Assembly: GCA_041662625.1 (NCBI GenBank)
Contig: JBAZSB010000001.1
Span: 535,189-599,188, forward strand
Source: Patescibacteria group bacterium
Lineage (GTDB): Bacteria > Patescibacteriota > Patescibacteriia > Buchananbacterales > UBA6539
Direction of reading: 5' to 3'
Length of the DNA: 64,000 nucleotides
Shown here: positions 3,689 to 47,589 of the stretch, piece by piece
Layout: each line of letters opens with the position of its first letter
Numbering within the stretch: position 1 is the first letter of the stretch
Translations under genes and position numbers: made by a program
Notes under the pieces: model-generated
Told to the model about the DNA's origin: nothing
Database searches by the model: none
What the model saw: the letters and a program-made list of their open reading frames with translations, nothing else

Positions 3689-4429
3689 TTATTTCGTATT
3701 TTTGTCAGTAGCTTCTTGGGCAACTTCATTTTTAATTTCTGCTTTTACTTCTTTTTCCTCGGTCTTTTCTCCATCCGTCTCTGATTTTTTTTCTTCGACC
3801 TCAAGAATCAAATCACCAGTTCCGGAAATTAAAAGTAAATTACTTATTGGACCAGGTACGGCGCCACGGATAAAAATTTCATTCTTTTCCGGGTCAACTT
3901 CAACAATTTCCAAATTTGTTACCGTGACTTGGCCGCCACCCATCCGGCCGCCCATTCGCATCCCTTTAAAAACGTGCTGCACACCGCCGGCGCCAATTGA
4001 ACCAGAGTGCCGTAACTGATCTTTATGACCATGAGTCGCCGGACTGCCATGAAAACCGTGTCGCTTTACTACCCCCTGGAAACCGCGACCCTTACTGGTT
4101 CCTGTCACTTTGACTAAATCGCCAGCTTGGAAAATTTTTGCGGTAATTTTATCACCCAGGGTTAATTTTTTTACTTCTGGGTCAGCAATTCTAAACTCTT
4201 TTAAAAAACGAAAGTTCCCTAAATTTTTCAAATGGCCGGAAATTGGCTTGTTTAAATTCCTTTTTGAGCCAAAACCAATCTGAACTGCTGTGTAGCCGTC
4301 TTTCTTGTCGGTTTTTACCTGGGTCACAACACAAGGTCCAGCCACTACTTTGGTAACTGGAATTACTGTTCCATCTTCAGTGAACTTCTGGGTCATTTCT
4401 TTTTTTTCTGCAAGTATGAATTTGGCCAT
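3689..4429 (-). CDS. rplC: 50S ribosomal protein L3
   Basis: TGTSKGRGFQGVVKRHGFHGSPATHGHKDQLRHSGSIGAGGVQHVFKGMRMGGRMG is the L3 signature. Confidence 0.95.
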   Translation of the reverse strand: MAKFILAEKKEMTQKFTEDGTVIPVTKVVAGPCVVTQVKTDKKDGYTAVQIGFGSKRNLNKPISGHLKNLGNFRFLKEFRIADPEVKKLTLGDKITAKIFQAGDLVKVTGTSKGRGFQGVVKRHGFHGSPATHGHKDQLRHSGSIGAGGVQHVFKGMRMGGRMGGGQVTVTNLEIVEVDPEKNEIFIRGAVPGPISNLLLISGTGDLILEVEEKKSETDGEKTEEKEVKAEIKNEVAQEATDKNTK

Positions 4430-10217: not shown

Positions 10218-10868
10218 CTATAAACCAAAAAGTCGTACAAATAAGCCAAAAATAAAGTTGAGAATATCACTGATAAAGGGCATGAATAAAAACAAAAGTA
10301 AAATGGAAATAACTAGACCATACTGAGCTAAAAATACAGGGTTGAGTAAAGGAGTTTTGGTTAAAAAACTGGCAATGGGCCGGAAAGTGGTCAAAAAATT
10401 GAATCCATCAAAGCCCGGCAAAGGTAAAAAATTAAAAACGGCTAAAACTATATTAATTTGTAAAACAGCGGAAAAAAACACTACCCCCAAATTATTAAAA
10501 GTAAAGCCCAAATATTGGGTGGTTACTTTCAAAACTATTGCTGCGAGTACCGCTAAAATAAGGTTAGTTAAAATCCCAGCCATAGCAACCCAACGGTAAG
10601 AAACCGCACCTCCCCTCAGGCGAAAAGGGTTAATTGGCACGGGTTTGGCCCAGCCAAAAAGAAAGCCGGATTGCGAAAATAACAAAAGCAAAGGCACAAC
10701 GATTGAACCAATCGGATCAATGTGAACCAAAGGATTCAAAGACAGCCGGCCCGACATCCGGGCTGTATCATCACCAAAATGATTGGCGACAAATCCATGA
10801 GCCACCTCATGAAAAATTACCGCCAGTAAGAAAGCAACGACGTAAATGATAAAAGATAAAGTTTCCAT
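10218..10868 (-). CDS. Peptidase M50 / site-2-protease-family membrane zinc metalloprotease
   Basis: Multi-TM protein with HEVAHGFVANHFGDD (HExxH). This is an assignment by motif only. Confidence 0.65.
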   Translation of the reverse strand: METLSFIIYVVAFLLAVIFHEVAHGFVANHFGDDTARMSGRLSLNPLVHIDPIGSIVVPLLLLFSQSGFLFGWAKPVPINPFRLRGGAVSYRWVAMAGILTNLILAVLAAIVLKVTTQYLGFTFNNLGVVFFSAVLQINIVLAVFNFLPLPGFDGFNFLTTFRPIASFLTKTPLLNPVFLAQYGLVISILLLFLFMPFISDILNFIFGLFVRLFGL

Positions 10869-11680: not shown

Positions 11681-11708
11681 CTAGAAAATTTGGTCGGGCC
11701 GGCGGGAC

Positions 11709-11819
11709 CCCGCACCAAACTTGCGAATTAGTTTATTTTAATCAGTGACTTATTGGCGCAGACACCGCCTTCGGCTGGACAATTTAAAATTAAAAAAAAA
11801 TATCAGTTTGGTGCGGGGC
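11709..11819. repeat. MITE-like long hairpin element E2 (14-bp clamp CCCCGCACCAAACT / AGTTTGGTGCGGGG)
   Basis: Perfect 14-bp inverted termini. An internal GCCUUCGGC hairpin. Shares loop words with E1. Confidence 0.45.
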
Positions 11820-11848
11820 AAGCTTGAACCCTATTTATAGTGTGTTGA

Positions 11849-11924
11849 GTCGGGCTGGGGAGACTCGAACTCCCGGCCTCATGCACCCCATGCATGCGCG
11901 CTACCAACTACGCCACAGCCCGAC
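11849..11924 (-). tRNA. tRNA-Pro (anticodon GGG)
   Basis: Minus-strand read GTCGGGC TG..GTAGTTGGTAGCGC..CATGC ATGGGGT GCATG AGGCC GGGAG TTCGAGT CTCCC CAGCCCGAC. It has a 7-bp acceptor, a T-arm with GTTCGAG, and a 7-nt anticodon loop with U33 and G37. CCA is not encoded. Flanking sequence extends the acceptor pairing. Confidence 0.85.
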
Positions 11925-11953
11925 TCAACACACTAGCTTATTATGCACCTTTA

Positions 11954-12062
11954 CCCCGCCTCAAGCCTCAAGTAAAAATTTATCTTTGACAGAAGTGAGC
12001 CGAAGGCGATTCCGAGGGCGAAGGTTCAATTTTTAAAAATATTCATTCGGGCTTGAGGCGGG
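11954..12062. repeat. Long hairpin element E3 (14-bp clamp CCCCGCCTCAAGCC / GGCTTGAGGCGGGG)
   Basis: Perfect 14-bp inverted termini. An internal GCCGAAGGC hairpin, the reverse complement of the E2 internal motif. Confidence 0.4.
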
Positions 12063-12121
12063 GCCATGCATGCGCTCAAGCCAACTTCGCTACGGCCCGA
12101 TGTTATTCATCATATACACAA

Positions 12122-12155
12122 AAAAACAAACCTGCAAGCTAGGGTTTGTTTTCCA
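12122..12155. terminator. Bidirectional intrinsic terminator-like hairpin (AAACAAACC-loop-GGTTTGTTT)
   Basis: 9-bp stem, T-rich on the plus side and a 7-T run on the minus side. Confidence 0.45.
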
Positions 12156-12417
12156 ACTTCAGAACTTCACTTCTAATTGGCCAAAGATTTTGGCTGAATG
12201 AAAGCCGGCCGTGTCAGACAATCAAACTTTTAAAGCATGGTTAGACACCTTAACGTGAGATTGTCTGCATTTGACCTTGGGGCTCGCAGGCTCCCGACCG
12301 TAGTCAGTACCGATTTAGAATCCCTACTCTCAAAGGTTGTCCCAAAACTTATGCCAACTGAGGGAAGTGAAGTTCACCTTTATTTTAGCACCCCCAAAAA
12401 GCGCTGTCAAAATTTTG

Positions 12418-12456
12418 TAAAAAAAGAGGGCCGAACAAGTCAGAAACTTGTGGCCC
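12418..12456 (-). terminator. Intrinsic terminator after DAHP synthase (GGGCCACAAG..CUUGUUCGGCCC + U-run)
   Basis: GC-rich hairpin followed by UCUUUUUUU on the minus strand, 30 nt past the stop. Confidence 0.55.
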
Positions 12457-12484
12457 CAAAAGAAACCCTCCCGCTTTGCAGAAC

Positions 12485-13519
12485 TTAGATGGTCCGGCCA
12501 ATAGCGATAGCCACGGCACGGACCTTGATCATTAGTTCAGCAAACTGCTGCGGATATAGCGACTGAGCGCCATCGCAAAGAGCTGAATCTGGATCAGGAT
12601 GAACTTCAATTAGTAATCCATCTGCGCCGACTGCTACTGCTCCCAAAGCGATGTCGGGTACAAGCTCGCGCTTGCCAGAAGGATGTGATGGGTCAAAGAT
12701 AACGGGGTGATGAGTCAACTTTTTGACGACCGGAATCGCGTCGAGATCGGCGTTGAAACGGGTGTAACCGTTATCAATGCCCCGGACACCACGAGCACAT
12801 AGGATTACTCGCGGGTTGCCAGAAGCAACGATGTACTCAGCGGCTAGTAGCCACTCATTAATGGTTGCAGCCATTCCCCGCTTCAGGATCACTGGCTTAT
12901 TGGTTCGACCAACAGCTTCCAACAAGGGGTAGTTTCCCATGTTGGCTGTACCAATCTGCAAGACATCAGCATATTGGGCGACCAACTCCACTAGCTCCGG
13001 CGAAATCACCTCCGTAACCGTGGCTAACCCCACTTGCCGTTTAGCCTGCTGTAATAGCCGCAGGCCTTCTTCGCCTAGACCTTGAAAGGCGAAAATTGAC
13101 TTACGTGGTTTGTAAGCACCTCCACGCAGCAGTCGAGCGCCGGCGGCCTTAACCGCTTCAGCACAACTAATCAGCTGCTGTTCGGATTCAACAGCACACG
13201 GTCCGGCTATCACCACCAGTGGCTCTGCACTGCCGATAGACACTCCGTTGAGGCGAACAGCGAAATCCTCTGGATGGGCCTGGCGAGCAGTCAAACGAAA
13301 CTGGGTAGTGGCAATCACCACATCAATGACGAAAGGCAGGCCACGGAAGAATTCCTGGAGCGCCAACTTGCGCTCATAATCCACCGCTCCGATGCAGTTA
13401 ATAACGATGATCTCTTTACCGCACGAGACCAACGTCTGCTCGAAACCGGCTTGTCTCGCCTCACTTTGGATTTTCCCGATCTGTTCTTTCGAACAGTCAC
13501 CTTTGATCTGAACAAACAT
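12485..13519 (-). CDS. 3-deoxy-7-phosphoheptulonate (DAHP) synthase, type Ibeta with N-terminal ACT/ferredoxin-like regulatory domain
   Basis: VVIAGPCAVESEQQ and LLRGGAYKPRKS are the KDO8PS-like DAHPS core. The start is taken as ATG 13519 (MFVQIKGD), which is preceded by GGAGG. GC-rich cassette. Confidence 0.8.
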   Translation of the reverse strand: MFVQIKGDCSKEQIGKIQSEARQAGFEQTLVSCGKEIIVINCIGAVDYERKLALQEFFRGLPFVIDVVIATTQFRLTARQAHPEDFAVRLNGVSIGSAEPLVVIAGPCAVESEQQLISCAEAVKAAGARLLRGGAYKPRKSIFAFQGLGEEGLRLLQQAKRQVGLATVTEVISPELVELVAQYADVLQIGTANMGNYPLLEAVGRTNKPVILKRGMAATINEWLLAAEYIVASGNPRVILCARGVRGIDNGYTRFNADLDAIPVVKKLTHHPVIFDPSHPSGKRELVPDIALGAVAVGADGLLIEVHPDPDSALCDGAQSLYPQQFAELMIKVRAVAIAIGRTI

Positions 13520-14360
13520 GATTGACCTCCTCTGCTTTAGGGTAAGAACCAACCACTACGACATCACTCACGAACCGTTCTTTGAGCTGCATAACCGCAG
13601 CGGCAAAGACCGGGTCACTCTCATGGCCATCAACATCAATCCAAAAGTAGCATTCTCCTAACGCCCGCTTGGTTGTATAGGAAGTAATGCGACTCAAGTT
13701 GAGGCCCTGATAGTAGAACACACCAAGAGCATGATACAGCGCCCCCGGTTCGTTCCTCGTAGAGAAGAAGAGAGTGGTCTTACTTTTACCATTGGCTGTT
13801 GTCCTGGGTCCTCCCAAGACAATAAAACGTGTCACGTTGTGTTGTGAATCGCCGATGTCAGCAGCCAGCACCTTAAGGCCAAATTGCTCAGCAGCCTGCT
13901 CGGAACTAATCGCCGCAACCATAGCCGATTCAGCCTGCGAGACCAACTCAGCAGCAAGCGCAGTGCTAGCCACTGGTGACTGTTTCCAACCACGGCCTCG
14001 CAAAAACTCCGAGCACTGAGCTAACCCCTGCGGATGCGACAAGACTTCGGTTACTGCCGACAATTCCGTTTGGGGTTTTGCTAAAAGCATCTGGCGAATT
14101 GGAATCAGTACTTCTTGGGTAATCCGCAGACCAGGCGTTGTCCAAACCCTGGCCATGAGAAAGTCGATGGTATCACGAACAACATCGCCCAAGACATTTT
14201 CCAACGGAACAATCGCCCGATCAATGCGGCCTTGAGTAAAGGCTTCGAGCAAATCAGGAATTGAATCAAACCCAACCAGCTCAAATTGGCCACGACCCCA
14301 GACGATTGCCGCTTGAGCGGAAAACGTTCCTAGCGGTCCTAGGTATCCTAACTTCAACAT
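13497..14360 (-). CDS. pheA: Prephenate dehydratase (PDT + ACT domains)
   Basis: LKLGYLGPLGTFS...TRF...TTKRALGECYFWIDVDGH is the PDT catalytic region plus a C-terminal ACT domain. The start is taken at the Met preceded by GGAAAGGAGA. Confidence 0.85.
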   Translation of the reverse strand: MLKLGYLGPLGTFSAQAAIVWGRGQFELVGFDSIPDLLEAFTQGRIDRAIVPLENVLGDVVRDTIDFLMARVWTTPGLRITQEVLIPIRQMLLAKPQTELSAVTEVLSHPQGLAQCSEFLRGRGWKQSPVASTALAAELVSQAESAMVAAISSEQAAEQFGLKVLAADIGDSQHNVTRFIVLGGPRTTANGKSKTTLFFSTRNEPGALYHALGVFYYQGLNLSRITSYTTKRALGECYFWIDVDGHESDPVFAAAVMQLKERFVSDVVVVGSYPKAEEVNHVCSDQR

Positions 14361-14388
14361 ACCCTGATGTCTCCTTTCCTCACTAGGG

Positions 14389-14847
14389 TTAATTGCCAAG
14401 ACCAGCTACCCGACCCAATACAAGCTCCAACAATCCCCGCCAACGACTGGGTTGTGACTCAATCTGGCGATCTGGTCTTCCATCTGGGAAAGTTGCTGCT
14501 GACGACGTCTGGCTTAAGCTAACGTTTGTCGCCTGAGGGCGGCTCTTCATGTCCGCAGCCAATCTCTCATAGATGTCACCGTAGACATCTTTCCACTTTG
14601 CATCAGCCGGTACCAGACCGCGCTCTTCGGCCAAAACCAGGATGGTTGGTTTGCTCAGATCACCCAGACAAATCAAGCCATTGGCCGCATCGTTGCCATC
14701 GCAACTATGGCACTGGTAGTACCGTGAAAGCTGAGCGATCAGATCATCCCGCGACCCGAAATCCAAACCGCAAGATCCGGCTTCAGCCTGCAGTGCCGCC
14801 GAGCTGAGCTGATTAAATCTCACTTGAACGCTCCATATACTCATATC
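14389..14847 (-). CDS. Hypothetical protein (152 aa), first gene of the Phe-attenuated operon
   Basis: GC-rich ORF with a strong SD (AAGGAAGGAGAG) before ATG 14847. No recognisable motif, and it is not an AroQ or AroH chorismate mutase. Confidence 0.5.
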   Translation of the reverse strand, partial: DMSIWSVQVRFNQLSSAALQAEAGSCGLDFGSRDDLIAQLSRYYQCHSCDGNDAANGLICLGDLSKPTILVLAEERGLVPADAKWKDVYGDIYERLAADMKSRPQATNVSLSQTSSAATFPDGRPDRQIESQPSRWRGLLELVLGRVAGLGN

Positions 14848-14976
14848 TTCTCTCCTTCCTTTCACTGAAGATTTCAAGTCCAATTTTCAAAGGGCGATTC
14901 TGGTTGCCCTCTCCAAACCAATCAGGCCTACTGCCTAATTGCTAACCCCTAGCTACCAAGAGTTAAAAATCAGGCA

Positions 14977-15013
14977 ATAAACAAAAAAACTGACCATTCA
15001 GTAGTAGATCAGT
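14977..15013 (-). terminator. Attenuator terminator of the Phe leader (ACUGAUC-loop-GGUCAGU + U7)
   Basis: Minus-strand hairpin followed by UUUUUUUGUUUAUUG. The leader segment ACUGACC at 15075-15081 can pair with the terminator 3' arm as an antiterminator. Confidence 0.55.
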
Positions 15014-15069
15014 TAGCTTTCCGTTTTTATTGATTTTGGCCTATTTTAAGCAAAATACAAGCTACCTGA

Positions 15070-15129
15070 CTACCGGTCAGTATAAAAGAAAAAGCTGAAA
15101 AACCATTTTACGGCTTGTGTCTTTTGCAT
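15070..15129 (-). CDS. Phe-rich leader peptide MQKTQAVKWFFSFFFYTDR (19 aa)
   Basis: The ATG lies ~5-9 nt after the predicted TSS, so the transcript is near-leaderless. There are 5 Phe, 1 Trp and 1 Tyr in a 9-codon run. It sits directly upstream of the terminator and the pheA-DAHPS operon. Confidence 0.6.
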   Translation of the reverse strand: MQKTQAVKWFFSFFFYTDR

Positions 15130-15140
15130 AGGATATTTGT

Positions 15141-15169
15141 AGCTTATCTTACTGTTTGAATATTGTCAA
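15141..15169 (-). promoter_or_regulatory. Sigma70-like promoter for the Phe leader (TTGACA-17-TAAGCT)
   Basis: -35 TTGACA, a 17-nt spacer and -10 TAAGCT on the minus strand. Confidence 0.45.
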
Positions 15170-15343
15170 GAAAACTGTGGGAATATTCCGCTAACAAGCA
15201 TCATGGCTTATTTATCCTAATTTGACTAAATCAATCTTCATCTCGCCCGCCGTAGCAGACTTAATTTTCAATATTCATATATCTTTAAAAACTTTCACTC
15301 ACCCTTCCTTGATGCCGACTATGGGACCTGTCGCGAAGGCGGG

Positions 15344-15967
15344 TCAAGAAAATTTCCGGGAGAGCCGAATATGCCGCCAAATGTATAAAGCAATTGCTAA
15401 AATAACCAAAATTAAAATTGCCAGATCAAAATTATGGAGTTTTTGCCGAATTAACTCCCAATTATCCCCCATTTTCACTCCTAACCAGGCAAAAAGAACG
15501 CACCAGGGGAAAGCCCCGATGAACGTGTAAAAAGAAAACTTTTTTAAATCCATTTTAGCAATCCCAGCGGGAAAAGAAATATAAGTCCGAACAACCGGCA
15601 GGAGCCGGCCAAAAAAAACCGTCAATTGACCATAATGGGAAAACCAATAGTCAGCCAAATCCAAATCGTGTTTGGAAATTAACAGGTACTTGCCATACTT
15701 TTCAATCAGCGGCCGACCGCCTTTAAAACCAATGAGGTAAGCTAAAAGTGACCCAACTAAATTACCAATTGTCCCAACTAAAACTACTGCCCAAAAATTT
15801 AATTTACCCGCCGCAACTAAAAATCCGGAAAACGGCATAATCACTTCGGAAGGCATCGGAATGCCACAACTTTCAACCAGCATTAAAAAAAAGATGCCGG
15901 GGTAGCCGATCAAATTAATTGTGGCCGTAACGATGCTAGCTAAAATGTCGATAATGGTTGTAACCAT
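15344..15967 (-). CDS. DedA/TVP38 family membrane protein
   Basis: VAAGKLNFWAVVLVGTIGNLVGSLLAYLIGFKGGRPLIEKYGK matches the DedA family. AT-rich composition like the host. Confidence 0.75.
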   Translation of the reverse strand: MVTTIIDILASIVTATINLIGYPGIFFLMLVESCGIPMPSEVIMPFSGFLVAAGKLNFWAVVLVGTIGNLVGSLLAYLIGFKGGRPLIEKYGKYLLISKHDLDLADYWFSHYGQLTVFFGRLLPVVRTYISFPAGIAKMDLKKFSFYTFIGAFPWCVLFAWLGVKMGDNWELIRQKLHNFDLAILILVILAIALYIWRHIRLSRKFS

Positions 15968-15968
15968 A

Positions 15969-16742
15969 TTACACTTCTATTTTAGAAAAAAGATAACTGC
16001 CAAGAGCTAATAGCCCTAGGGTAATTAAACTCAAAACAATAAAATCAGTCAGTAAACCCAGATGGGCCCCTTGAATTAAAGCCCCACGTAAACCGTCCAC
16101 GCCATAAACCAAAGGATTAATTTTGGTGGCAGTCACAATTGGTGCAGGAAAACTTTCCAAAGGAAATAAAGCCCCGGAAAGAAAAAAGATTGGCATGATT
16201 AAAAAATTCATAATGATGGGAAAAGCTTGCATATCCTGCAGCATTGTCGCAATGGCTGTACCAAAAGCCGTAAAGACTAAAGCGATTAAAATCATAAAAA
16301 CTAAAGCCAGTGGCAAAAGCAGCCAATCAGTCGGCCGAAAACCCACCACTAAAGTCATCAAAAAAACAATAATGCCCTGAAGGGTGGCAACGGTTGCCCC
16401 ACCCATTGTTCGGCCAATCATAATTTGAAAACGCGAAGCTGGTGCCACCAAAGTTTCTTTTAAAAAGCCAAACTGCCGGTCCCAAATGATTTCAATTCCG
16501 GTAAAAATCGCCGTAAAAATGATGGCCATGGCAATTACACCAGGACCAAGAAATTGCAAATAGCTGCCTTCCCCGGCCTTTTGGTAAATCGGCCCAAAAC
16601 CAAAACCCAAAGCCAATAAAAACAAAAGTGGCTGGCCAAGCGAACCAATCATTCTGGCTTTTGATCTTAAATATCTTTTAATTTGTCTCAACCACAAAAT
16701 ATAAATAACTTTCATATTTTTATTTGCTTTTACCGGCCCCAA
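15969..16742 (-). CDS. ABC-2 type transporter permease
   Basis: Six-TM permease adjacent to the ABC ATPase. Their ORFs overlap. Confidence 0.7.
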   Translation of the reverse strand: MGPVKANKNMKVIYILWLRQIKRYLRSKARMIGSLGQPLLFLLALGFGFGPIYQKAGEGSYLQFLGPGVIAMAIIFTAIFTGIEIIWDRQFGFLKETLVAPASRFQIMIGRTMGGATVATLQGIIVFLMTLVVGFRPTDWLLLPLALVFMILIALVFTAFGTAIATMLQDMQAFPIIMNFLIMPIFFLSGALFPLESFPAPIVTATKINPLVYGVDGLRGALIQGAHLGLLTDFIVLSLITLGLLALGSYLFSKIEV

Positions 16743-17515
16743 GCCTTACGATAACTACGTAACTGATCAAGACCGGAAGCACTCTCGTCTCGAATAATCC
16801 GACCCGTTAAAACTAAAAAAGCGTCTTCCAAAGATTCTTTATTAGTTCTTTGTTTTAATTCATTTGGACTGCCTAAAGCAATAATTTTTCCGTGATCGAT
16901 AATTGCCACTTTTTTTGCGGCCCGGTCGGCTTCTTCCATGTAGTGAGTGGTAAAAAATACCGTCATCCCCTCTTTTTGGTTCAAATCTTTAATATAATTC
17001 CAAATATGATTTCGCGTCTGCGGATCCAAACCCAAAGTTGGCTCGTCTAAAAATAAAATTTGCGGATGATGAATCAAGCCCCGGGCAATTTCCAGCCGCC
17101 GCTTCATCCCACCGGAAAATTTCTTGACCAGTTCATCTTTGCGGTCCCAAAGCTCGACAAATTTCAGCATTTCTTCAATCCGCTGCCGGCGAATCTTTTT
17201 AGCCACGCCGTATAAGACCCCGTGAAATTCCATATTCTCCCAAGTGGTTAACTCATCATCTAAACTGGGATCCTGAAAAACAATACCAAAAGAATGGCGC
17301 ACTGCATCCTGGTCAGTTGAAGGATTATGGCCGTTAACCAAAATTTTTCCGCTGGTTGGCAAAAGCAAAGTGGTCAGCATTTTAATTGTTGTGGTTTTGC
17401 CCGCACCGTTAGGTCCCAAAAAAGCAAAAATATCTCCTTTAGCGACACTAAATGAGATATTATCAACTGCCGTAAAATCACCAAATTTTTTAGTTAAACT
17501 ATCTACCTTAATCAT
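16730..17515 (-). CDS. ABC transporter ATP-binding protein
   Basis: Walker A GPNGAGKTTT, signature LSGGMKRRLEIA and Walker B LFLDEPTLGLD. Confidence 0.9.
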   Translation of the reverse strand: MIKVDSLTKKFGDFTAVDNISFSVAKGDIFAFLGPNGAGKTTTIKMLTTLLLPTSGKILVNGHNPSTDQDAVRHSFGIVFQDPSLDDELTTWENMEFHGVLYGVAKKIRRQRIEEMLKFVELWDRKDELVKKFSGGMKRRLEIARGLIHHPQILFLDEPTLGLDPQTRNHIWNYIKDLNQKEGMTVFFTTHYMEEADRAAKKVAIIDHGKIIALGSPNELKQRTNKESLEDAFLVLTGRIIRDESASGLDQLRSYRKAWGR

Positions 17516-17627
17516 AAAAAATTAAATCACTCATACATTATAAACTCTTTTAGCCCCAAAGAAAAGGCCCCAAGTCAACGCGGACCTGGGGCAAAAAAGG
17601 ACAAACTAGCGTAAGCTAGAAATTTTC

Positions 17628-17781
17628 TGGTCGGGGTGGCAGGATTTGAACCTGCGTCATCGCTTATGCGACTGCTCTTCCTCCTTACGGAGCCTTATCC
17701 TCTATTCCCCAAGCTTATTTGATGATCGGGACCATCTTAGCCAGAGTGGGTACTAATTGGCATCGGCTGAGCTACACCCCG
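17628..17781 (-). ncRNA. tRNA-like RNA element (154 nt): canonical acceptor stem, T-arm and encoded CCA, but no D or anticodon arms
   Basis: The 5' end CGGGGUGUAGCUCAGCC pairs perfectly with the 3' end GCAGGUUCAAAUCCUGC CACCCCG A CCA. The middle is ~95 nt of structured insert (CUCC-GUAA-GGAG and GUCGC-AUAA-GCGAU tetraloop hairpins). Terminator hairpins plus U-runs follow on the minus strand. Confidence 0.45.
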
Positions 17782-17984
17782 TAAATAACATTTAACCAAC
17801 AACAGTTAACAATTAACTGATAAAATAAAAGAGCCCAGGAAGTTGGGCTGTTAAATGTTAACTGTCAATTGTTTTTAGCTAATGATAAACCCAACTTCCC
17901 TAAGGCAAGGTTGGGGGGACGGGCTGAGTTGAACTGAAACGTTTAATCATAGAATTATCTTACTACTACTTAAAAATTTTGTCA

Positions 17985-18020
17985 AAGAAAAAGGACCGGG
18001 TCGCACAAACACGGTCCTAC
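17985..18020 (-). terminator. Intrinsic terminator after the 167-aa gene (AGGACCG..CGGTCCT + U-run)
   Basis: 7-bp GC stem followed by UUUUUCUUUG on the minus strand. Confidence 0.5.
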
Positions 18021-18057
18021 AAGACAATCGACTGGGTGATTAAGATGTTACGACATC

Positions 18058-18561
18058 CTAGATGGTAACATTAAGCAGGTTTGTCTTACTTCTCCCACTC
18101 ATATCGATTACGCCGGTGGGTGGAATTACTCCTTTCACCAGCGATAGCTGGGAATCCCCGTGGCGGGGAGATACCACAACCGACAACAGAATGGGTTGTC
18201 CACCTACAATGAACGATACTTCGGGAATTACGAAGCATTGATCTGCGGTGACCAAATCTCTGAGTTGCCGGCTGCCGGCTTCACTGGCTGCTTGCGCCTG
18301 CTGGGCGGAAATCACCCTAAAGTAAATCAATGCTGCGCCAACCCGCGGGTTGACCCAAACGCAATGCTCGCCAGCATTGCCGTTGCAGTCGGCCAAGGCT
18401 CGGCAAATCCAGGCCATAGCAGCATCCACATCGGTCCGGTTAATGATTTCCGGACTGCAGGCAGTACTGATCTTAGCCTGATCATAACCTTGACCTGTCA
18501 GATGCCGGTCAAAAAACCAAACATCTCGTCCGTTTCCTTCGACTTTCAGTTGTACTGGCAT
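18058..18561 (-). CDS. Hypothetical protein (167 aa), under the Leu-rich leader
   Basis: GC-rich ORF with a very strong SD (GGAAGGAGG) 7 nt before ATG 18561. No recognisable motif. Confidence 0.55.
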   Translation of the reverse strand: MPVQLKVEGNGRDVWFFDRHLTGQGYDQAKISTACSPEIINRTDVDAAMAWICRALADCNGNAGEHCVWVNPRVGAALIYFRVISAQQAQAASEAGSRQLRDLVTADQCFVIPEVSFIVGGQPILLSVVVSPRHGDSQLSLVKGVIPPTGVIDMSGRSKTNLLNVTI

Positions 18562-18576
18562 TTCCAGGCCTCCTTC

Positions 18577-18753
18577 CTATTTCACCCGACCTAATTCCTT
18601 GCAGACCGGACACACTTTTGCCCCCTTGGGCATCCAGTGGTAATACTGGCAGGCTTCTGGGGCGTTAACCAACTCAATGTACAGCCAACGTCCGCCTACA
18701 ATGTAAGTGGCAACTATTGCCCCTACAATCCAGTGCCAAAGTGGTGGAAACAT
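18577..18753 (-). CDS. Small membrane protein (58 aa) MFPPLWHWIVGAIVATYIVGG...CPVCKEL, below ORF-track threshold
   Basis: One TM helix plus a C-terminal CxxC. An RBS-like GAAAGGGA precedes it. It lies between the Leu attenuator and the 167-aa gene. Confidence 0.4.
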   Translation of the reverse strand: MFPPLWHWIVGAIVATYIVGGRWLYIELVNAPEACQYYHWMPKGAKVCPVCKELGRVK

Positions 18754-18880
18754 ATTGCTATCCCTTTCTTGGTTGTCAATACTATTCTTCAGCTATAATG
18801 AGCAAACCTCCGCTCACCCCCACACCTATTTCACTAAAAAATTTTAGTAAACAGATAATGGCTTTAAAATAGGTGTAGGG

Positions 18881-18975
18881 GTAAACAAAACAACCTTCCG
18901 GGTGGAAGGCTGACTGGTATTTATCTAGCTACGATTTTTAGCTAAACACTAGTAAATCTTCCACCCAAAGGCTGG
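18881..18975 (-). terminator. Attenuator terminator of the Leu leader (conserved GGGUGGAAG / CUUCCACCC arms + UUGUUUUGUUU)
   Basis: Arms are ccttccgggtggaagg at 18893-18908 and cttccacccaaaggctgg at 18958-18975. Both arms are near-identical to those of the Ile attenuator at 22046-22141. Confidence 0.6.
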
Positions 18976-19028
18976 CTTAACAACAAGGCTAACAACAGTA
19001 AGCTAGATTGTTTGGCGAAAGATTTCAT
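18942..19028 (-). CDS. Leu-rich leader peptide MKSFAKQSSLLLLALLLSQPLGGRFTSV (28 aa)
   Basis: 7 Leu in a 9-codon run. The ORF starts ~5 nt after the predicted TSS. The stop codon lies inside the terminator loop. Confidence 0.6.
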   Translation of the reverse strand: MKSFAKQSSLLLLALLLSQPLGGRFTSV

Positions 19029-19039
19029 AGGATATTATT

Positions 19040-19068
19040 AGGTTAGCGCAAGTCCAAAAAAATGTCAA
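19040..19068 (-). promoter_or_regulatory. Sigma70-like promoter for the Leu leader (TTGACA-17-TAACCT)
   Basis: The -35 overlaps the U-tract of the upstream terminator. Confidence 0.45.
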
Positions 19069-19084
19069 GAAATAAAAAAAGGCC

Positions 19085-19125
19085 CGTAGTGACAGAGCCA
19101 AGCCATGTCACTACGGGACGAAGAA
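19085..19125 (-). terminator. Strong intrinsic terminator (12-bp stem CCCGTAGTGACA / TGTCACTACGGG + U7) after the 109-aa gene
   Basis: Perfect 12-bp inverted repeat followed by CUUUUUUUAUUUCUUG on the minus strand. Confidence 0.6.
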
Positions 19126-19163
19126 AACGATGGGTCGATAAAACCCTGAAGCAGTGCTTAGAT

Positions 19164-19493
19164 CTAGACCTGTGCGCCAAGCTCCCGCAGTTGAGCCAAA
19201 AGCTCCGGAGCGACAGCAACGCCATGCCGCTGACTCAGGAATTCAACAGTTGACGGAACGCAGACATAGCATAATTGAGCCTTTCTGTCTCTCCAGTGCC
19301 CTGGCTTACCGTTGCTGGGTTCAGGTCCTGGCAAATTCAGCTTAGTGTTGAGCACCTTAAGCTCCTGAAGATTCCCCCTTAGTCTCCGAAGGAGATCAGA
19401 AGGATCATCCAGCCTTTCACACTTGGTCCGCCGCGGGACCCTATCTACACCAACACCATCAACATCCTGTTCAATTCCAGCACAGTCTACCAT
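19164..19493 (-). CDS. Hypothetical protein (109 aa)
   Basis: GC-rich ORF with SD AAGGAG 9 nt before the ATG. No recognisable motif. Confidence 0.5.
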   Translation of the reverse strand: MVDCAGIEQDVDGVGVDRVPRRTKCERLDDPSDLLRRLRGNLQELKVLNTKLNLPGPEPSNGKPGHWRDRKAQLCYVCVPSTVEFLSQRHGVAVAPELLAQLRELGAQV

Positions 19494-19527
19494 GGTTCCT
19501 TCTCCTTCATGTTATCGATTCATTCAA

Positions 19528-19812
19528 TCAACACAAGCCACAAGTAGCATATACCGCTTCTTTGGTGATCATCCCAGAACCAGTTGCGTTGCCGCGAAAG
19601 ACTTTCACCCTACCATTAGTCCGGACGGCAAAACAATGATAAGCGCAGGCAACACCGGAGTAATGAAACTCCACTATTCGCGGATCACACTGACCACCGA
19701 TCACTAGTTGACCAGCCTCGTTGACAGAAATTCTGACCCTTCTGTCGTAGGTGACACTTTGACCGGGTTTGAGATCAAAAGTCGCATCCGGCATCAAATC
19801 ATCATCTTCCAT
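19528..19812 (-). CDS. Hypothetical Cys-containing protein (94 aa), under the Val-rich leader
   Basis: SD AGAGGAG before the ATG. C-terminal Cys pairs (ACAYHC...ATCGLC). No family recognised. Confidence 0.5.
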   Translation of the reverse strand: MEDDDLMPDATFDLKPGQSVTYDRRVRISVNEAGQLVIGGQCDPRIVEFHYSGVACAYHCFAVRTNGRVKVFRGNATGSGMITKEAVYATCGLC

Positions 19813-19929
19813 AGCCCTAACTCCTCTAAGTCTTATCGACTTGTTTGCAAAGAACAGATACGAATCTGCCCTCCTCTCCCTAAACTCGGTTTATTTCCTA
19901 CCCTCTGATCAGCAACATAAACAAAGGGT

Positions 19930-19962
19930 AATAAACAAAAAACTAGTCCTTTGACAGACTAG
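19930..19962 (-). terminator. Attenuator terminator of the Val leader (CUAGUC-loop-GACUAG + UUUUUUGUUUAUU)
   Basis: The 3' tail UUUUUUGUUUAUU(A/G)CC is shared with the Phe attenuator terminator. The leader codons GUA CUA GUC can compete for GACUAG. Confidence 0.5.
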
Positions 19963-19993
19963 GTGGTTCCAGTTCTAATTTTGGAAATCCAAA

Positions 19994-20059
19994 CTACCCA
20001 GTCTGCGAGACTAGTACGACGACGGTCAAAACGACAGTTGTCCGGGCAATAGATTTCAT
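19994..20059 (-). CDS. Val-rich leader peptide MKSIARTTVVLTVVVLVSQTG (21 aa)
   Basis: 6 Val in a 9-codon run. The MKS.A+ N-terminus and SQ.G C-terminus parallel the Leu and Ile leaders. Near-leaderless. Confidence 0.55.
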   Translation of the reverse strand: MKSIARTTVVLTVVVLVSQTG

Positions 20060-20065
20060 ACGATT

Positions 20066-20095
20066 AGTTTAGCAAATCAAAAATAATCTTGTCAA
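20066..20095 (-). promoter_or_regulatory. Sigma70-like promoter for the Val leader (TTGACA-18-TAAACT)
   Basis: Spacing and hexamers parallel the other three attenuator promoters. Confidence 0.4.
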
Positions 20096-20109
20096 ATTTT
20101 AAAAAAAGA

Positions 20110-20150
20110 CCGACCACCCCGTGACAGAGTAATCGGTCGCATAATACCTG
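20110..20150 (-). terminator. Intrinsic terminator after the LeuA/CimA-like gene (GACCGA..UCGGUC + U7)
   Basis: Hairpin followed by UUUUUUU on the minus strand. Confidence 0.5.
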
Positions 20151-20178
20151 GAGTTTTGCGCTTAGGCGATAGCTTTGA

Positions 20179-21945
20179 CTAACGGCGATGACAGTGCAGA
20201 AAGTACTGATAGCCGGCCGCTAATGCTCGGGCCGAAGCTTCGGTTACTGACTCGGAGACAGCAACTGTTCCCCAAATTTCATCACCATTATTCTTGATGC
20301 GCCAGAACAGTATTACCCGAACCCGGGCAGCTGTTCCGTCATGGTTAATCAACGCTTTCACGTTGTAGTTAACCAATTCAAGGCCTACCAGCTCGGGGAA
20401 AACCGGTTCACGCGACCGGCCACCGCGTTCCTGCAGTGCCTGACGCAGAGCTTTGTCCAAGGCGTTGACCAAGCCATCACCTTTGGCCGTCTTCAGACCG
20501 ATAGTCCGGCCATCAGCCAACTCGACTTGAACCGTTGCCTTGGGACTGCCCAGCATCAAATTCTGAAGCTGCCGATCAAGAGTTTCACCGGGCAAGCCGG
20601 TGTAGGGCGGAATCCTCTCAGTCAACTCGCACATCGTCACAGTGAAAAACGGCTGCAATCGGTCTAGCTGGCGCAAGGCCAAAAGTCGAAAACTACCCTC
20701 AGCCGTTTCAAACAGCCAACCATCCCTTTCCAAGCCGTGAACCTTATCAAGCAGCTCGCCAATTCGCGGATCGCTTGGTGCCAAGTTTCTGATAAACTCA
20801 GCTAATCGAACGCGCATCAAGGTTCGGCCGGCTTGATTGGATAGGCCAAGGCTGGTCTGGTTGCCAACCATTGCCGCCCGGATGTGCTCAACTGAATCAG
20901 GATCTTTCAGCCAAGCGTGACTGTGGGTTCCACCTTCGTGATGGAAGGCATTGGGTCCGGCCACCGGCAGGTTGAACGGAATTTCAATTCCCGCCAGATT
21001 GTAGACGTAGCGGGTCAGAGCCGTCCAAAGGGTAAGTTGCTTGGCGGTTACTACGGCAATGCCCATCTTAAGGACCAGACTGGGGATGATCGTGGTCAGG
21101 TTAGCATTGCCAGTCCGCTCACCGATACCACCAATCGTTCCTTGGACATGATCGCAACCGAGTTCAACTGCCAAAAGCGAATTGGCATCGCCCATGCCGG
21201 AATCATTATGGGTATGAACACCCCATTCGACTCCCTGATCCTTTAACCAAGGCACGACGTCGAGCAGAAAAGCAAGCCATTCTGCCGGCAAGGTCCCGCC
21301 GCGGGTGTCACATAGAACTATCCGGCGAGCCCCACCATTGATTGCAGCTGACAAAGTCTTGAAGAAGTATCTTCGGTCGTCTCGCCAGCCGTCAACCGCA
21401 TGCTCGGCATCATAAATGACGGTTTTGCCAACCGATACCAGCGCCGCTACCGTTTCTTCGATTATCCGCAGATTTTCTGCCAGCCGGATTTCCAAAACCC
21501 TTTGGACGTGAAGCTTCCAGCTCTTGCCGAAAACCACCACGTGACTTACGCCAGTATCCAAGACCGACTTGATCATCGGATTGGTGATAAGAATTCGCTC
21601 ACCAGGTTTGTTCGGCTTGACCGTTCCCATAAAAGCGTAAAAAGTCACGCCAAGCTGATGGTACCGCTTTCTTTGAGCGAGAAGCTGACGAAAGACCTCC
21701 GGGTTGACTTTGTCACTCGGCACTGGCCAGCCAACCTCAATATGGCGCAAGCCGGCTCTAACCGCCTGGCTAATCACACTCATCTTGTCCTCGGCCGTCC
21801 AAGTCAGACTCCGAGTCTGACCACCGTCACGACAAGTAGTGCAGAGCAGATCGACTTTCTTTGGTCGACCAAGCAATTTCAGCAACTTAGGCTCAGTCGC
21901 CAATCTCGCTATTACGTCAGCTAGTGACTTCTGAACTAACTGCAT
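20179..21945 (-). CDS. 2-isopropylmalate synthase / (R)-citramalate synthase family enzyme (HMGL-like TIM barrel + C-terminal LeuA-dimer regulatory domain)
   Basis: Contains RDGGQ, HTHNDSGMGDANSLLAVELGCDHVQGTIGGIGERTGNANL, and a long C-terminal regulatory region. The start is taken at the Met preceded by AAGGAGG (MQLVQKSL). The Ile-rich leader suggests citramalate synthase (isoleucine pathway), but this is inference. Confidence 0.8.
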   Translation of the reverse strand: MQLVQKSLADVIARLATEPKLLKLLGRPKKVDLLCTTCRDGGQTRSLTWTAEDKMSVISQAVRAGLRHIEVGWPVPSDKVNPEVFRQLLAQRKRYHQLGVTFYAFMGTVKPNKPGERILITNPMIKSVLDTGVSHVVVFGKSWKLHVQRVLEIRLAENLRIIEETVAALVSVGKTVIYDAEHAVDGWRDDRRYFFKTLSAAINGGARRIVLCDTRGGTLPAEWLAFLLDVVPWLKDQGVEWGVHTHNDSGMGDANSLLAVELGCDHVQGTIGGIGERTGNANLTTIIPSLVLKMGIAVVTAKQLTLWTALTRYVYNLAGIEIPFNLPVAGPNAFHHEGGTHSHAWLKDPDSVEHIRAAMVGNQTSLGLSNQAGRTLMRVRLAEFIRNLAPSDPRIGELLDKVHGLERDGWLFETAEGSFRLLALRQLDRLQPFFTVTMCELTERIPPYTGLPGETLDRQLQNLMLGSPKATVQVELADGRTIGLKTAKGDGLVNALDKALRQALQERGGRSREPVFPELVGLELVNYNVKALINHDGTAARVRVILFWRIKNNGDEIWGTVAVSESVTEASARALAAGYQYFLHCHRR

Positions 21946-22045
21946 ATCAGTATCCTCCTTCCGTTTGTCACGAATTATAACTCCAGTTGATGTCAAGGTT
22001 CCAACTCCCTCCATGACTTACAAAGACAATCTAAGTAAGACAATC

Positions 22046-22141
22046 AAAAAAACCTTCCGGGTGGAAAGTCTCTCTGATCGTTTTACTTATTTCTGATTTC
22101 TTATTTCTGATTTCTCATCTTAAGACTTCCACCCAAAGGCT
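22046..22141 (-). terminator. Attenuator terminator of the Ile leader (GGGUGGAAGUCUCU...AGAGACUUUCCACCC + U7)
   Basis: Long hairpin with a perfect U7. The 5' arm and preceding 22 nt (UUAGCCAGCCUUUGGGUGGAAG) are identical to the Leu attenuator. Confidence 0.65.
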
Positions 22142-22190
22142 GGCTAATGATGATAATACCGATAATAATGTTTTGCCGCGTAGAAGTCAT
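22101..22190 (-). CDS. Ile-rich leader peptide MTSTRQNIIIGIIIISQPLGGSLKMRNQK (29 aa)
   Basis: 7 Ile in an 8-codon run. The ORF starts ~9 nt after the predicted TSS. The SQPLGG segment is encoded by the conserved scaffold. Confidence 0.6.
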   Translation of the reverse strand: MTSTRQNIIIGIIIISQPLGGSLKMRNQK

Positions 22191-22205
22191 AATTTTTATA
22201 TCGTT

Positions 22206-22234
22206 ATCTTAAGCTAAACCAAAAGAATAGTCAA
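22206..22234 (-). promoter_or_regulatory. Sigma70-like promoter for the Ile leader (TTGACT-17-TAAGAT)
   Basis: Hexamers and 17-nt spacing read directly from the sequence. Confidence 0.45.
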
Positions 22235-22262
22235 GTTTTTAAAATAATCTAGCTAATTTCAG

Positions 22263-22487
22263 CTATTTTGGTAAGTTGCCATCATTATTTAAATTTATTG
22301 GCTGATTTAATGACCGACTGGGTATTACCGCGGCTGAAGCTTGAAAAGCGTAGGCCACCCAGCCCAAAATGAACAAGACTAAAATTATGGACAATATCGA
22401 CAAACCTAAAAATTGACCTGCCTCCCGCAAACTTTGCAGCCTGGATTTTCTGGGATAACGATAGTTTTTACTTAAGTATGGCGACAT
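22263..22487 (-). CDS. Hypothetical small membrane protein (74 aa)
   Basis: Single TM segment. No motif. Confidence 0.3.
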   Translation of the reverse strand: MSPYLSKNYRYPRKSRLQSLREAGQFLGLSILSIILVLFILGWVAYAFQASAAVIPSRSLNQPINLNNDGNLPK

Positions 22488-22510: not shown

Positions 22511-22687
22511 TCACTGCATATGATCATTGATGAACTTAATTAGGTCTTTTTCAAAAACCCGGTAAGTTTTATGGCCTATTTTAGCGGCCCTTAATTTGCG
22601 GGCAGCAACCCAGCGGTAAACCGTTTTTTGGCTTACCTTCATGATCTTAGCGACTTCTTCGAGGGTGAGAATTCCGTAGTTAGACAC
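22511..22687 (-). CDS. Excisionase/AlpA-family helix-turn-helix DNA-binding protein (58 aa, GTG start, not in ORF track)
   Basis: Translation VSNYGILTLEEVAKIMKVSQKTVYRWVAARKLRAAKIGHKTYRVFEKDLIKFINDHMQ. LTLEEVAKIL.VS..TVYRW...G.L.A.KIG is the excisionase-family HTH pattern. Confidence 0.45.
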   Translation of the reverse strand: MSNYGILTLEEVAKIMKVSQKTVYRWVAARKLRAAKIGHKTYRVFEKDLIKFINDHMQ

Positions 22688-47322: not shown

Positions 47323-47525
47323 AAAATCTCCCGCCTCGAGGGGGAGTGGTTACTTCATTCGTTCTCTTAGAAAACGAAAGGTCACCGACTCTTGATCTCG
47401 AAGAGTTTAGTGATTTAATAGAGCCATAATTTTCTCGACCTGGCTTACCCCGATTTTATATTGGGGATTACAGTTGCGGATCAGCGGAGGATTCACACCT
47501 CGCTTCGGAAAATTAAAGCTGTTTG
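47323..47525 (-). promoter_or_regulatory. Cobalamin (B12) riboswitch with intrinsic-terminator expression platform
   Basis: Minus-strand RNA contains GGUGUGAAUCC-UCC-GCUGAU-CCGCAACUGUAAUCCCC ... GGGGUAAGCCAGG. This matches the GGUG.AA.UCC...CCGC.ACUGUAA core and the AGYCAGG B12 box. The terminator CUCCCCCUCGAGGCGGGAG plus U6 ends ~10 nt before the start codon. Confidence 0.7.
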
Positions 47526-47589
47526 TCAAAGTATTATCATTGTAGATTGTCTAATTTTCAGTGTCAAGTAAATTTTGTGGATAACTTAA

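Follow-up and report, generated by a model that had tools for sequence, protein, structure and literature searches.

What does a run of similar regulatory units, each headed by a short open reading frame (ORF) rich in one amino acid, do in the genome of a Patescibacteria group bacterium, which belongs to the Candidate Phyla Radiation (CPR)? The question is raised by a locus in a 64,000-nucleotide stretch of contig JBAZSB010000001.1 (hereafter the window; all window features described below lie on its minus strand). Between 22234 and 14973, five transcription units of common design follow one another, which we call Ile, Val, Leu, Pro-type and Phe. We consider it highly probable that they are five paralogous ribosome-mediated (leader-peptide) transcription attenuators, a reading to which we are led by the conservation of the leaders, synonymous variation within their codon runs, the cognate functions of several genes behind them (the cargo), and a folding scan with its shuffle control. 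The original prediction had recognized four units of one design on this strand; all four are where it placed them, and the Pro-type unit at 17822-17985 brings the count to five.

The units are distinctive within the window. A regular expression for TTGAC(N), a 16-19-nt spacer, TAnnnT and an ATG-initiated ORF of 8-45 codons, run over both strands of the 64 kb, matched these five sites and no others. The TTGAC(A/T) hexamers, 17-18-nt spacers and TAAGCT, TAAACT, TAACCT and TAAGAT elements first reported for four units are present as described, and the four leader peptides read exactly as given. The leader ORFs comprise 16-29 codons, and none of the five has a Shine-Dalgarno (SD) sequence. They had been placed 5-9 nt past the transcription start; near-leaderless they are, with a predicted 5' untranslated region of about 0-8 nt. 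Each ORF is followed by an intrinsic terminator, a hairpin with a U tract, ahead of the first cargo gene, and the cargo genes carry GGAGG-type SD sites, again as predicted. Within the best stretch of eight residues, the cognate amino acid occupies 7/8 positions in the Ile and Leu leaders and 5/8 in the Val and Phe leaders (6/8 aromatic in the latter if Tyr is counted), while in the Pro-type leader proline accounts for four of the last seven codons. A promoter-independent scan of the window found 41 short ORFs with at least 5/8 identical residues, and 7/8 was reached in the Ile and Leu leaders alone.

Every unit is laid out in the same order: the codon run, a region 1 that overlaps the run or directly follows it, region 2, a spacer, region 3, region 4 and the U tract. 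The Ile promoter (22206-22234) consists of TTGACT (22229-22234), 17 nt and TAAGAT, its -35 and -10 hexamers being kept in orthologues. The ATG of its SD-less leader ORF, MTSTRQNIIIGIIIISQPLGGSLKMRNQK (22101-22190), lies 15 nt past the -10 element, and the Ile run spans 22146-22169. Region 1, CAGCCUUU (22135-22142), is followed by the antiterminator region 2, GGGUGGAAG (22126-22134), and the terminator (22041-22068) comprises region 3, CUUUCCACCC (22059-22068), region 4, GGAAGG (22053-22058), and a U tract at 22041-22052. This leader also contains a 14-nt tandem duplication, two copies of GAAATCAGAAATAA at 22088-22115, the first of which provides the end of the ORF and its stop codon; the ORF has 29 codons in the window versus 24-26 in orthologues.

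The Leu unit uses the same regions 1 and 2. Its promoter (19040-19068; TTGACA at 19063-19068, 17 nt, TAACCT) precedes the leader ORF MKSFAKQSSLLLLALLLSQPLGGRFTSV (18942-19028), with the ATG 11 nt past the -10 element, region 1 CAGCCUUU at 18967-18974 and the antiterminator region 2 GGGUGGAAG at 18958-18966. The terminator (18881-18908) is built from region 3, CUUCCACCC (18900-18908), region 4, GGAAGGUUG (18891-18899), and the U tract at 18881-18890. In both units region 2 pairs with CUUCCACCC, which forms the 5' arm and loop of the short terminator CCUUCC-ACCC-GGAAGG. The segment shared by these units had been taken for the 5' arm of the terminator; it is rather region 1 together with the antiterminator region 2, and CCUUCC-ACCC-GGAAGG is the minimal terminator.

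In the Val unit, the promoter (20066-20095; TTGACA at 20090-20095, 18 nt, TAAACT) ends 6 nt ahead of the ATG of the leader ORF MKSIARTTVVLTVVVLVSQTG (19994-20059), making the predicted mRNA effectively leaderless. Region 1 is CUAGUCU (20008-20014) and region 2 GCAGACUGGGU (19996-20006), which can also form a local 1:2 hairpin; the terminator (19930-19964) consists of region 3, ACCUAGUCUGU (19954-19964), region 4, GGACUAG (19943-19949), and the U tract at 19930-19942. The Pro-type promoter (17957-17985; TTGACA, 17 nt, TAAGAT) is likewise followed after 6 nt by the ATG of an effectively leaderless ORF, MIKRFSSTQPVPPTLP (17900-17950), with region 1 at 17903-17915, region 2 GGGAAGUUGGG at 17890-17900, and a terminator (17822-17847) of region 3, CCCAACUUCC (17838-17847), region 4, UGGGCU (17832-17837), and U tract 17822-17831. 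Last comes the Phe unit, with its promoter at 15141-15169 (TTGACA at 15164-15169, 17 nt, TAAGCT) and leader ORF MQKTQAVKWFFSFFFYTDR at 15070-15129, the ATG again 11 nt past the -10 element. Its region 1, ACUGACC (15075-15081), is followed by region 2, GGUAGUCAGGUAGCUU (15059-15074), and the terminator side (14973-15019) holds region 3, AAGCUAACUGAUCUAC (15004-15019), region 4, GGUCAGU (14989-14995), and the U tract at 14973-14988. ACUGACC can pair with region 2 or with the 3' arm of the terminator, and was at first read as the antiterminator; in our folding model it is region 1, the part that a stalled ribosome covers.

We folded 14 leaders, the five of the window and nine orthologues, in three states: free RNA, RNA with a ribosome on a codon close to the 3' end of the run, and RNA whose ribosome has reached the stop codon. 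Free RNA folds in 13 of the 14 into a long hairpin (1:4 outer, 2:3 inner) abutting the U tract, the Pro-type leader of the relative L003 forming a short 3:4 terminator instead; in the Val, Phe and Pro-type units a local 1:2 hairpin can also form beside the 3:4 terminator. A ribosome at the stop codon covers region 2, and the RNA then folds into the short 3:4 terminator. At the end of the run the ribosome covers region 1 alone; regions 2 and 3 form their helix, and region 4 stays single-stranded. The antiterminator helix 2:3 is predicted in all units.

To follow the ribosome codon by codon, we ran a partition-function scan over every A-site position in 20 leaders, scoring the 3' arm of the terminator as unpaired at P < 0.35. 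In 19 of the 20 the arm is unpaired solely within a window of one to four A-site codons, which falls on the last one to three cognate codons or the next codon for ribosome footprints that extend 10-14 nt beyond the first A-site base; at a footprint of 8 nt it shifts about one codon downstream. When all sequence upstream of the terminator was dinucleotide-shuffled, an antitermination window of any kind appeared in 19 of 400 shuffles (5%).

These structures suggest how the units may work. A strong sigma-70-type promoter would give a transcript that starts at, or a few nucleotides ahead of, the SD-less leader AUG. Left untranslated, the RNA would adopt the 1:2 and 3:4 hairpins, or the nested 1:4 and 2:3 hairpin reaching the U tract, and transcription would terminate; a ribosome that reaches the stop codon would cover region 2, let the short 3:4 terminator form, and lead to the same outcome. 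Where the cognate charged tRNA is scarce, the ribosome would stall on the last codons of the run, covering region 1 only. Regions 2 and 3 could then pair, leaving region 4 without a partner, and RNA polymerase would be expected to read through into the cargo.

The leader family recurs in five further related lineages, found by scanning with the regular expression the contigs that encode relatives of the protein behind the Ile leader, a citramalate-synthase-like (CimA-like) enzyme; recurrence in other genomes was a check that the original prediction had proposed. The CimA-like proteins of these contigs are 82, 80, 77, 68, 55 and 54% identical to that of the window and belong to a small, Patescibacteria-specific clade, identity falling to 38% for citramalate synthases of other phyla. 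The contigs derive from assemblies independent of one another (ENA, JGI, Logan and NCBI), and one lineage is Candidatus Moraniibacteriota. Scans of genome and metagenome collections with an alignment of the CimA clade returned three loci each, most of them already among these contigs.

An Ile-run leader stands ahead of the CimA-like gene in 6/6 lineages whose contig covers the upstream region, the peptides in the five further lineages being MTSIKNSIIISIIIISQPMGGSLSTR, MTFTKDIIISIIIISQPMGGSLSTM, MTFTQRSIIIGIIIIDQPMGGSLSTL, MKLKNIFIIIISIIITRLELSSEFSF and MQIRKFSTISIIISIIKKPLEWKV. Val leaders occur in L003 and L006 (MKSIARTTVVLSVVVLV, MKSIAATIVVLNVVVLV), and Leu leaders in L003, L006, L019 and L016, four further versions with many synonymous Leu-codon changes. 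The Pro-type leader has the orthologue MIKRNNQILPVPPSLP in L003 and L004, and aromatic leaders are found in L003 and L006 (MQNSIAAKFYFNFYFFADR, MQSTQANKWFFNFYFFADR) and in L007 (...YYFFWF...). Throughout, the runs are held by synonymous changes (TTA, TTG, CTG, CTA and CTT for Leu, ATT and ATC for Ile) while flanking residues vary, and the reading frame, AUG and stop are conserved. On the sequence evidence, such synonymous maintenance is a signature of selection on translated codons.

That coding signature bears on the possibility that the units are non-coding riboregulators or small RNA genes, such as tRNA- or metabolite-sensing leaders, within which the ORFs are incidental. The unit RNAs are indeed strongly structured and have their own promoter and terminator. 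No T-box, riboswitch or small RNA family in Rfam matches a unit at threshold, however, the runs are kept by synonymous substitution in a conserved frame with conserved AUG and stop, and an AUG at or near the predicted 5' end fits leaderless initiation. We rejected this explanation, on the lack of an Rfam family and the coding conservation of the leader ORFs, and regard it as very improbable.

The RNA structures are maintained as well. Terminator stems vary across lineages yet stay complementary (CCUUCC/GGAAGG, UCCGCC/GGCGGA, GCCUUCC/GGGAGGC, CAGCUUUCC/GGAAAGCUG, CCGACUCGGC/GCCGAGCCGG), and the 2:3 helix GGGUGG:CCACCC becomes GAGUGG:CCACUC in L016, complementarity being kept. When the Ile/Leu scaffold was aligned with MAFFT, the diverged terminators fell out of structural register, and we relied on per-sequence folding and shuffles instead.

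Several modules are common to pairs of units. One 20-mer, AGCCAGCCTTTGGGTGGAAG, occurs unchanged in both the Ile and the Leu unit (22126-22145 and 18958-18977). It was first described as 22 nt long; the preceding base differs, and 21 of those 22 positions match. A second identical stretch, the 16-mer TTCCACCCGGAAGGTT, lies in their terminators. The Val and Leu ORFs begin with a common ATGAAATCT; Leu and Phe share AATATCCTATG, the 8 nt ahead of the start codon plus ATG; and Phe and Val have in common the terminator tail TTTTTTGTTTATT(A/G)CC, which was correctly given in the original prediction. For an identical 20-mer to arise by chance in two units of about 190 nt is essentially impossible. 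These shared modules indicate that the five units are a natural paralogous family, which would have arisen by duplication followed by a swap of the codon run.

Duplication or design had both been offered as origins, and duplication is the part that stands. An engineered or synthetic cassette family might be expected to look this regular and modular, down to a 20-mer that recurs unchanged in a second unit, but diverged orthologous sets occur in independent ENA, JGI, Logan and NCBI environmental assemblies, including a Candidatus Moraniibacteriota metagenome-assembled genome, and these show natural substitution patterns and differing cargo. A designed construct, rejected on the strength of those diverged orthologues in independent metagenome assemblies, is scarcely credible. 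In the Moraniibacteriota relative, L007, leader-like ORFs at 6077, 8320, 9168 and 9800 carry a different common tail (GFGLSRI, FSLSRVF, GFSLSKVF), which makes the shared scaffold look lineage-specific; neither a clear codon run nor a switching window is seen in the candidates at 8320 and 9168.

If the leaders sense amino acids, the genes behind them might be expected to reflect it, and several do. The Ile leader precedes the CimA-like protein (20179-21945), which has an HMGL-like and a LeuA_dimer regulatory domain by Pfam and whose best NCBIfam match is citramalate synthase TIGR00977 at 398 bits, under the 450-bit cut-off. The Phe operon opens with a 151-residue orphan (14389-14844) and continues with a prephenate dehydratase (PDT) with an ACT domain (13497-14360), above its NCBIfam equivalog cut-off, and a 3-deoxy-D-arabino-heptulosonate 7-phosphate synthase (DAHP synthase, DAHPS) with an N-terminal ferredoxin-like domain (12485-13519). 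The Val leader is followed by two orphans (19164-19812) of 94 (19528-19812) and 109 residues (19164-19493), and the Leu leader by a 58-residue protein (18577-18753), which has a single hydrophobic segment and a C/H/C/C cluster, and a 167-residue orphan (18058-18561). That the Val and Leu versions control proteins of no recognized function, as first noted, holds in this genome; the orthologous Leu leaders of L019 and L006 stand ahead of 2-isopropylmalate synthase (LeuA), of two different types. Cognate cargo is thus found for Ile (CimA-like), for Phe (PDT, DAHPS) and, in L006 and L019, for Leu (LeuA).

This match between peptide and cargo speaks to another explanation: each short ORF would be a gene in its own right, encoding a small hydrophobic peptide (membrane, toxin or signal-like) between a promoter and a terminator of its own, and expression of the genes downstream would not depend on it. 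In its favour, the peptides of the Ile, Leu and Val units are hydrophobic, conservation extends to parts of the peptides beyond the run (for example SQPLGGRFTSV), and terminators are predicted to form in the free RNA. Yet in each peptide the dominant amino acid fits the enzymes encoded downstream (Ile for CimA, Leu for LeuA, Phe for PDT and DAHPS), and the Phe and Pro-type peptides are not membrane-like. The conserved SQPLGG codons overlap RNA regions 1 and 2, whose pairing accounts for their conservation. Where the codon run lies with respect to the alternative helices is also preserved, in 19/20 leaders against 5% of shuffles, and no separate consensus promoter was seen from the leader terminators to the cargo genes. 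We rejected stand-alone peptide genes on the cognate cargo, the placing of the SQPLGG codons within the RNA regions and the contrast between real leaders and shuffles, and judge them improbable.

Behind conserved leaders the cargo varies by lineage, LeuA versus orphans and PDT/DAHPS versus orphans. The orphans evolve fast: orthologues in L004 are 34-60% identical to those of the window, versus 77% for CimA, with the 94-residue Val cargo protein at 60% in L004, and its L004 and L006 versions at 30% to each other. No orphan cargo protein had a Pfam or NCBIfam match; word-index homologue searches of large protein sets with the 94- and 167-residue proteins returned the query alone, an exhaustive HMMER search with the 151-residue protein found two relatives only (about 45% identity), and alignment-free structure prediction of the orphans gave no usable models. 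Tested for depletion of the sensed amino acid, the cargo proteins showed no clear depletion. GC content is about 0.50 in the genes of the Ile, Val, Leu and Phe leaders (12485-14844, 18058-21945) versus about 0.38-0.42 in 15344-17515 and the flanks, and an excess of cargo over flanking genes is also seen in the relatives L004 and L006. Taken together, the higher GC and the lineage-varying content suggest cargo replacement or horizontal acquisition. In L006, a normal tRNA-Ala(UGC) gene (4306-4378) sits between the Val-leader terminator and the 94-residue cargo gene.

The Pro-type unit shares the geometry of the other four, with its antitermination window on the P12-P13-T14 codons, and its first cargo is an RNA. 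Directly after the leader terminator lies a tRNA-Pro-like RNA (17628-17781) with an acceptor stem, C1:G72, A73, an encoded CCA, and D and T arms. A 5-bp stem with the tetraloop AUAA takes the place of the anticodon loop, and the D loop carries an insertion of about 85 nt. C1:G72 and A73 are tRNA-Pro identity features. The orthologue in L003 (9845-9918, plus strand) is compact, with the tetraloop UAAA, and its stems covary with those of the window copy; it is called as 'tRNA-???' with a 2-nt anticodon. Neither ARAGORN nor Rfam RF00005 called a canonical tRNA at 17628-17781 in the window, and no Rfam family was found for this RNA, tmRNA matching at 17 bits only. Downstream lie a DrrA/DrrB-type ATP-binding cassette (ABC) exporter (16730-17515 and 15969-16715) and an UptA/DedA-like protein (15344-15967). 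The unit would control the tRNA-Pro-like RNA and possibly the exporter.

Consecutive prolines slow ribosomes, and the motif PVPP(T/S)LP, conserved in L003, is compatible both with proline sensing and with a different signal. For the Pro-type unit, and possibly others, the motif may be an intrinsic stall peptide that reports translation stress (elongation factor P status or ribosome-targeting antibiotics) and induces the tRNA-like RNA and the DrrAB-type exporter. We see this as a real but minority possibility. It would suit a proline run that is short and interrupted and a cargo that includes an exporter-type ABC system rather than a proline pathway, and an exporter under ribosome-mediated attenuation has a reported precedent in bmrCD of Bacillus subtilis (PMC4191407). 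A link to proline itself is argued by the geometry, identical to that of the amino-acid units with the window on P12-P13-T14, and by the tRNA-Pro identity features of the first cargo.

Several points weigh against reading all five units as amino-acid attenuators. The exception in the folding scan is the window's own Phe unit, whose antitermination window is weak (minimum P 0.6); a weak 5-bp mini-hairpin, ACUGA-AUGG-UCAGU, beside the U tract keeps the 3' arm partly paired. The folding model treats the RNA at equilibrium and assumes a ribosome footprint, and covariation statistics are thin because only about six related lineages were retrieved. The proline run is short, with four Pro in seven codons, and a terminator at 17567-17592 stands between the tRNA-like RNA and the ABC exporter. 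Finally, the Val cargo, this genome's Leu cargo and the first gene of the Phe operon have no known link to those amino acids.

With these points taken into account, we believe that the locus of this CPR bacterium holds five paralogous amino-acid attenuators, a lineage-specific family not described before, which work by what appears from sequence and modelling to be the textbook mechanism. One account of CPR bacteria regards them as poor in amino-acid biosynthesis (PMC7427843). Five predicted amino-acid-specific switches in 7 kb would imply that this lineage, at least, keeps watch on individual pools of charged tRNA. Such switches would offer a direct handle on the genes that uncultivated cells induce when a given amino acid runs short, orphans and the tRNA-like RNA included. 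The family would likewise provide a clean natural example of how new attenuator specificity arises, by cassette duplication and a codon-run swap, and a case of conserved leaders retained while the cargo behind them is replaced. More speculatively, and in our view rather doubtfully, the cluster of attenuators may act as the sensory front end of a programme for amino-acid starvation specific to these host-dependent CPR bacteria, in which the leader cassette, one for each amino acid, is conserved and the cargo is exchangeable. If so, the orphans and the tRNA-Pro-like RNA that lacks an anticodon would be, rather than biosynthetic enzymes, new effectors that act in the scavenging of amino acids, in interaction with the host or in control of tRNA and aminoacylation.

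The surroundings of the cluster hold further features. A small HTH_17 (excisionase/MerR-like) protein is encoded just upstream of the Ile unit (22511-22687) and a tRNA-Pro(GGG) gene (11849-11922) lies just downstream of the Phe operon; the two flank the cluster, possibly as marks of a genomic island. A conserved non-coding transcript of about 250 nt (12128-12385) separates the DAHP synthase gene from tRNA-Pro(GGG), with its own promoter (TTGACA, 17 nt, TAAAAT; 12382-12410) and terminator, a closing helix GAACUUCACUUC/GAAGUGAAGUUC, a counterpart in L004 at about 10385-10640, and no match in Rfam. Further off, at 47379-47534, is an adenosylcobalamin (B12) riboswitch, scoring 52.5 bits versus the 50-bit Rfam gathering threshold.

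How does this family compare with leaders already described? Among the curated Rfam leader families (Leu_leader, Phe_leader RF01859, RF01743, His, Thr and Trp), none matched anywhere in the window at the gathering threshold. With permissive filters the only leader match was Phe_leader on the Leu unit, at 27.1 bits (threshold 55, E 0.44). T-box had no match at the gathering threshold or at E <= 5 within 11700-22400, small RNA families none at gathering or permissive thresholds. Literature searches returned no report of leader-peptide attenuation in Patescibacteria/CPR.

In design, the units resemble the classical enterobacterial attenuators (trp, his, leu, pheA, thr, ilvGMEDA, ilvBN). Both have a short leader ORF in which the regulatory codons are clustered, regions 1-4 whose 2:3 antiterminator and 3:4 terminator helices exclude each other, a U tract, and the same logic, predicted here from folding, in which stalling gives readthrough and either no translation or full translation gives termination. 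Their cargo, too, includes first-committed, feedback-regulated enzymes (LeuA/CimA type, PDT, DAHPS). The units of this CPR host differ in having no sequence or covariance-model similarity to the enterobacterial leaders, in leader ORFs that lack an SD and begin 0-8 nt from the predicted 5' end, and in an Ile/Leu region 1 that pairs mainly with region 4 in a nested long hairpin rather than locally with region 2; several cargos, moreover, are orphan proteins or an RNA.

For the Pro-type unit, the bmrCD exporter operon of B. subtilis, reported to be subject to ribosome-mediated attenuation that responds to translation-targeting antibiotics (PMC4191407), is a possible analogue. The two share a leader peptide and a terminator/antiterminator ahead of an ABC exporter, and differ in the tRNA-like RNA that lies between leader and exporter here and in the signal, which for bmrCD is antibiotics and not an amino acid.

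Leaderless leader ORFs are familiar from the Actinobacteria, for example the poly-Cys short ORFs of mycobacteria and the leu, ilv and trp leaders of Corynebacterium. There as here, (near-)leaderless attenuator peptides would tie ribosome loading to the start of transcription; the present units belong to a different phylum, have no sequence relationship to those leaders, involve other amino acids and form a multi-member paralogous set.

For a modular family whose regulatory codons are swapped, the nearest precedent is the 'Leu/phe leader' of Lactococcus, in which one leader scaffold reportedly carries Leu or Phe runs ahead of matching pathway genes. The original prediction held that natural leaders do not normally share a scaffold with only the codons exchanged; such sharing has a precedent in this Lactococcus lactis family, RF01743, listed in Weinberg et al. 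(2010; PMC2864571). RF01743 matches none of the units described here, which occur in a different phylum, comprise five specificities versus two, and lie clustered within 7 kb.

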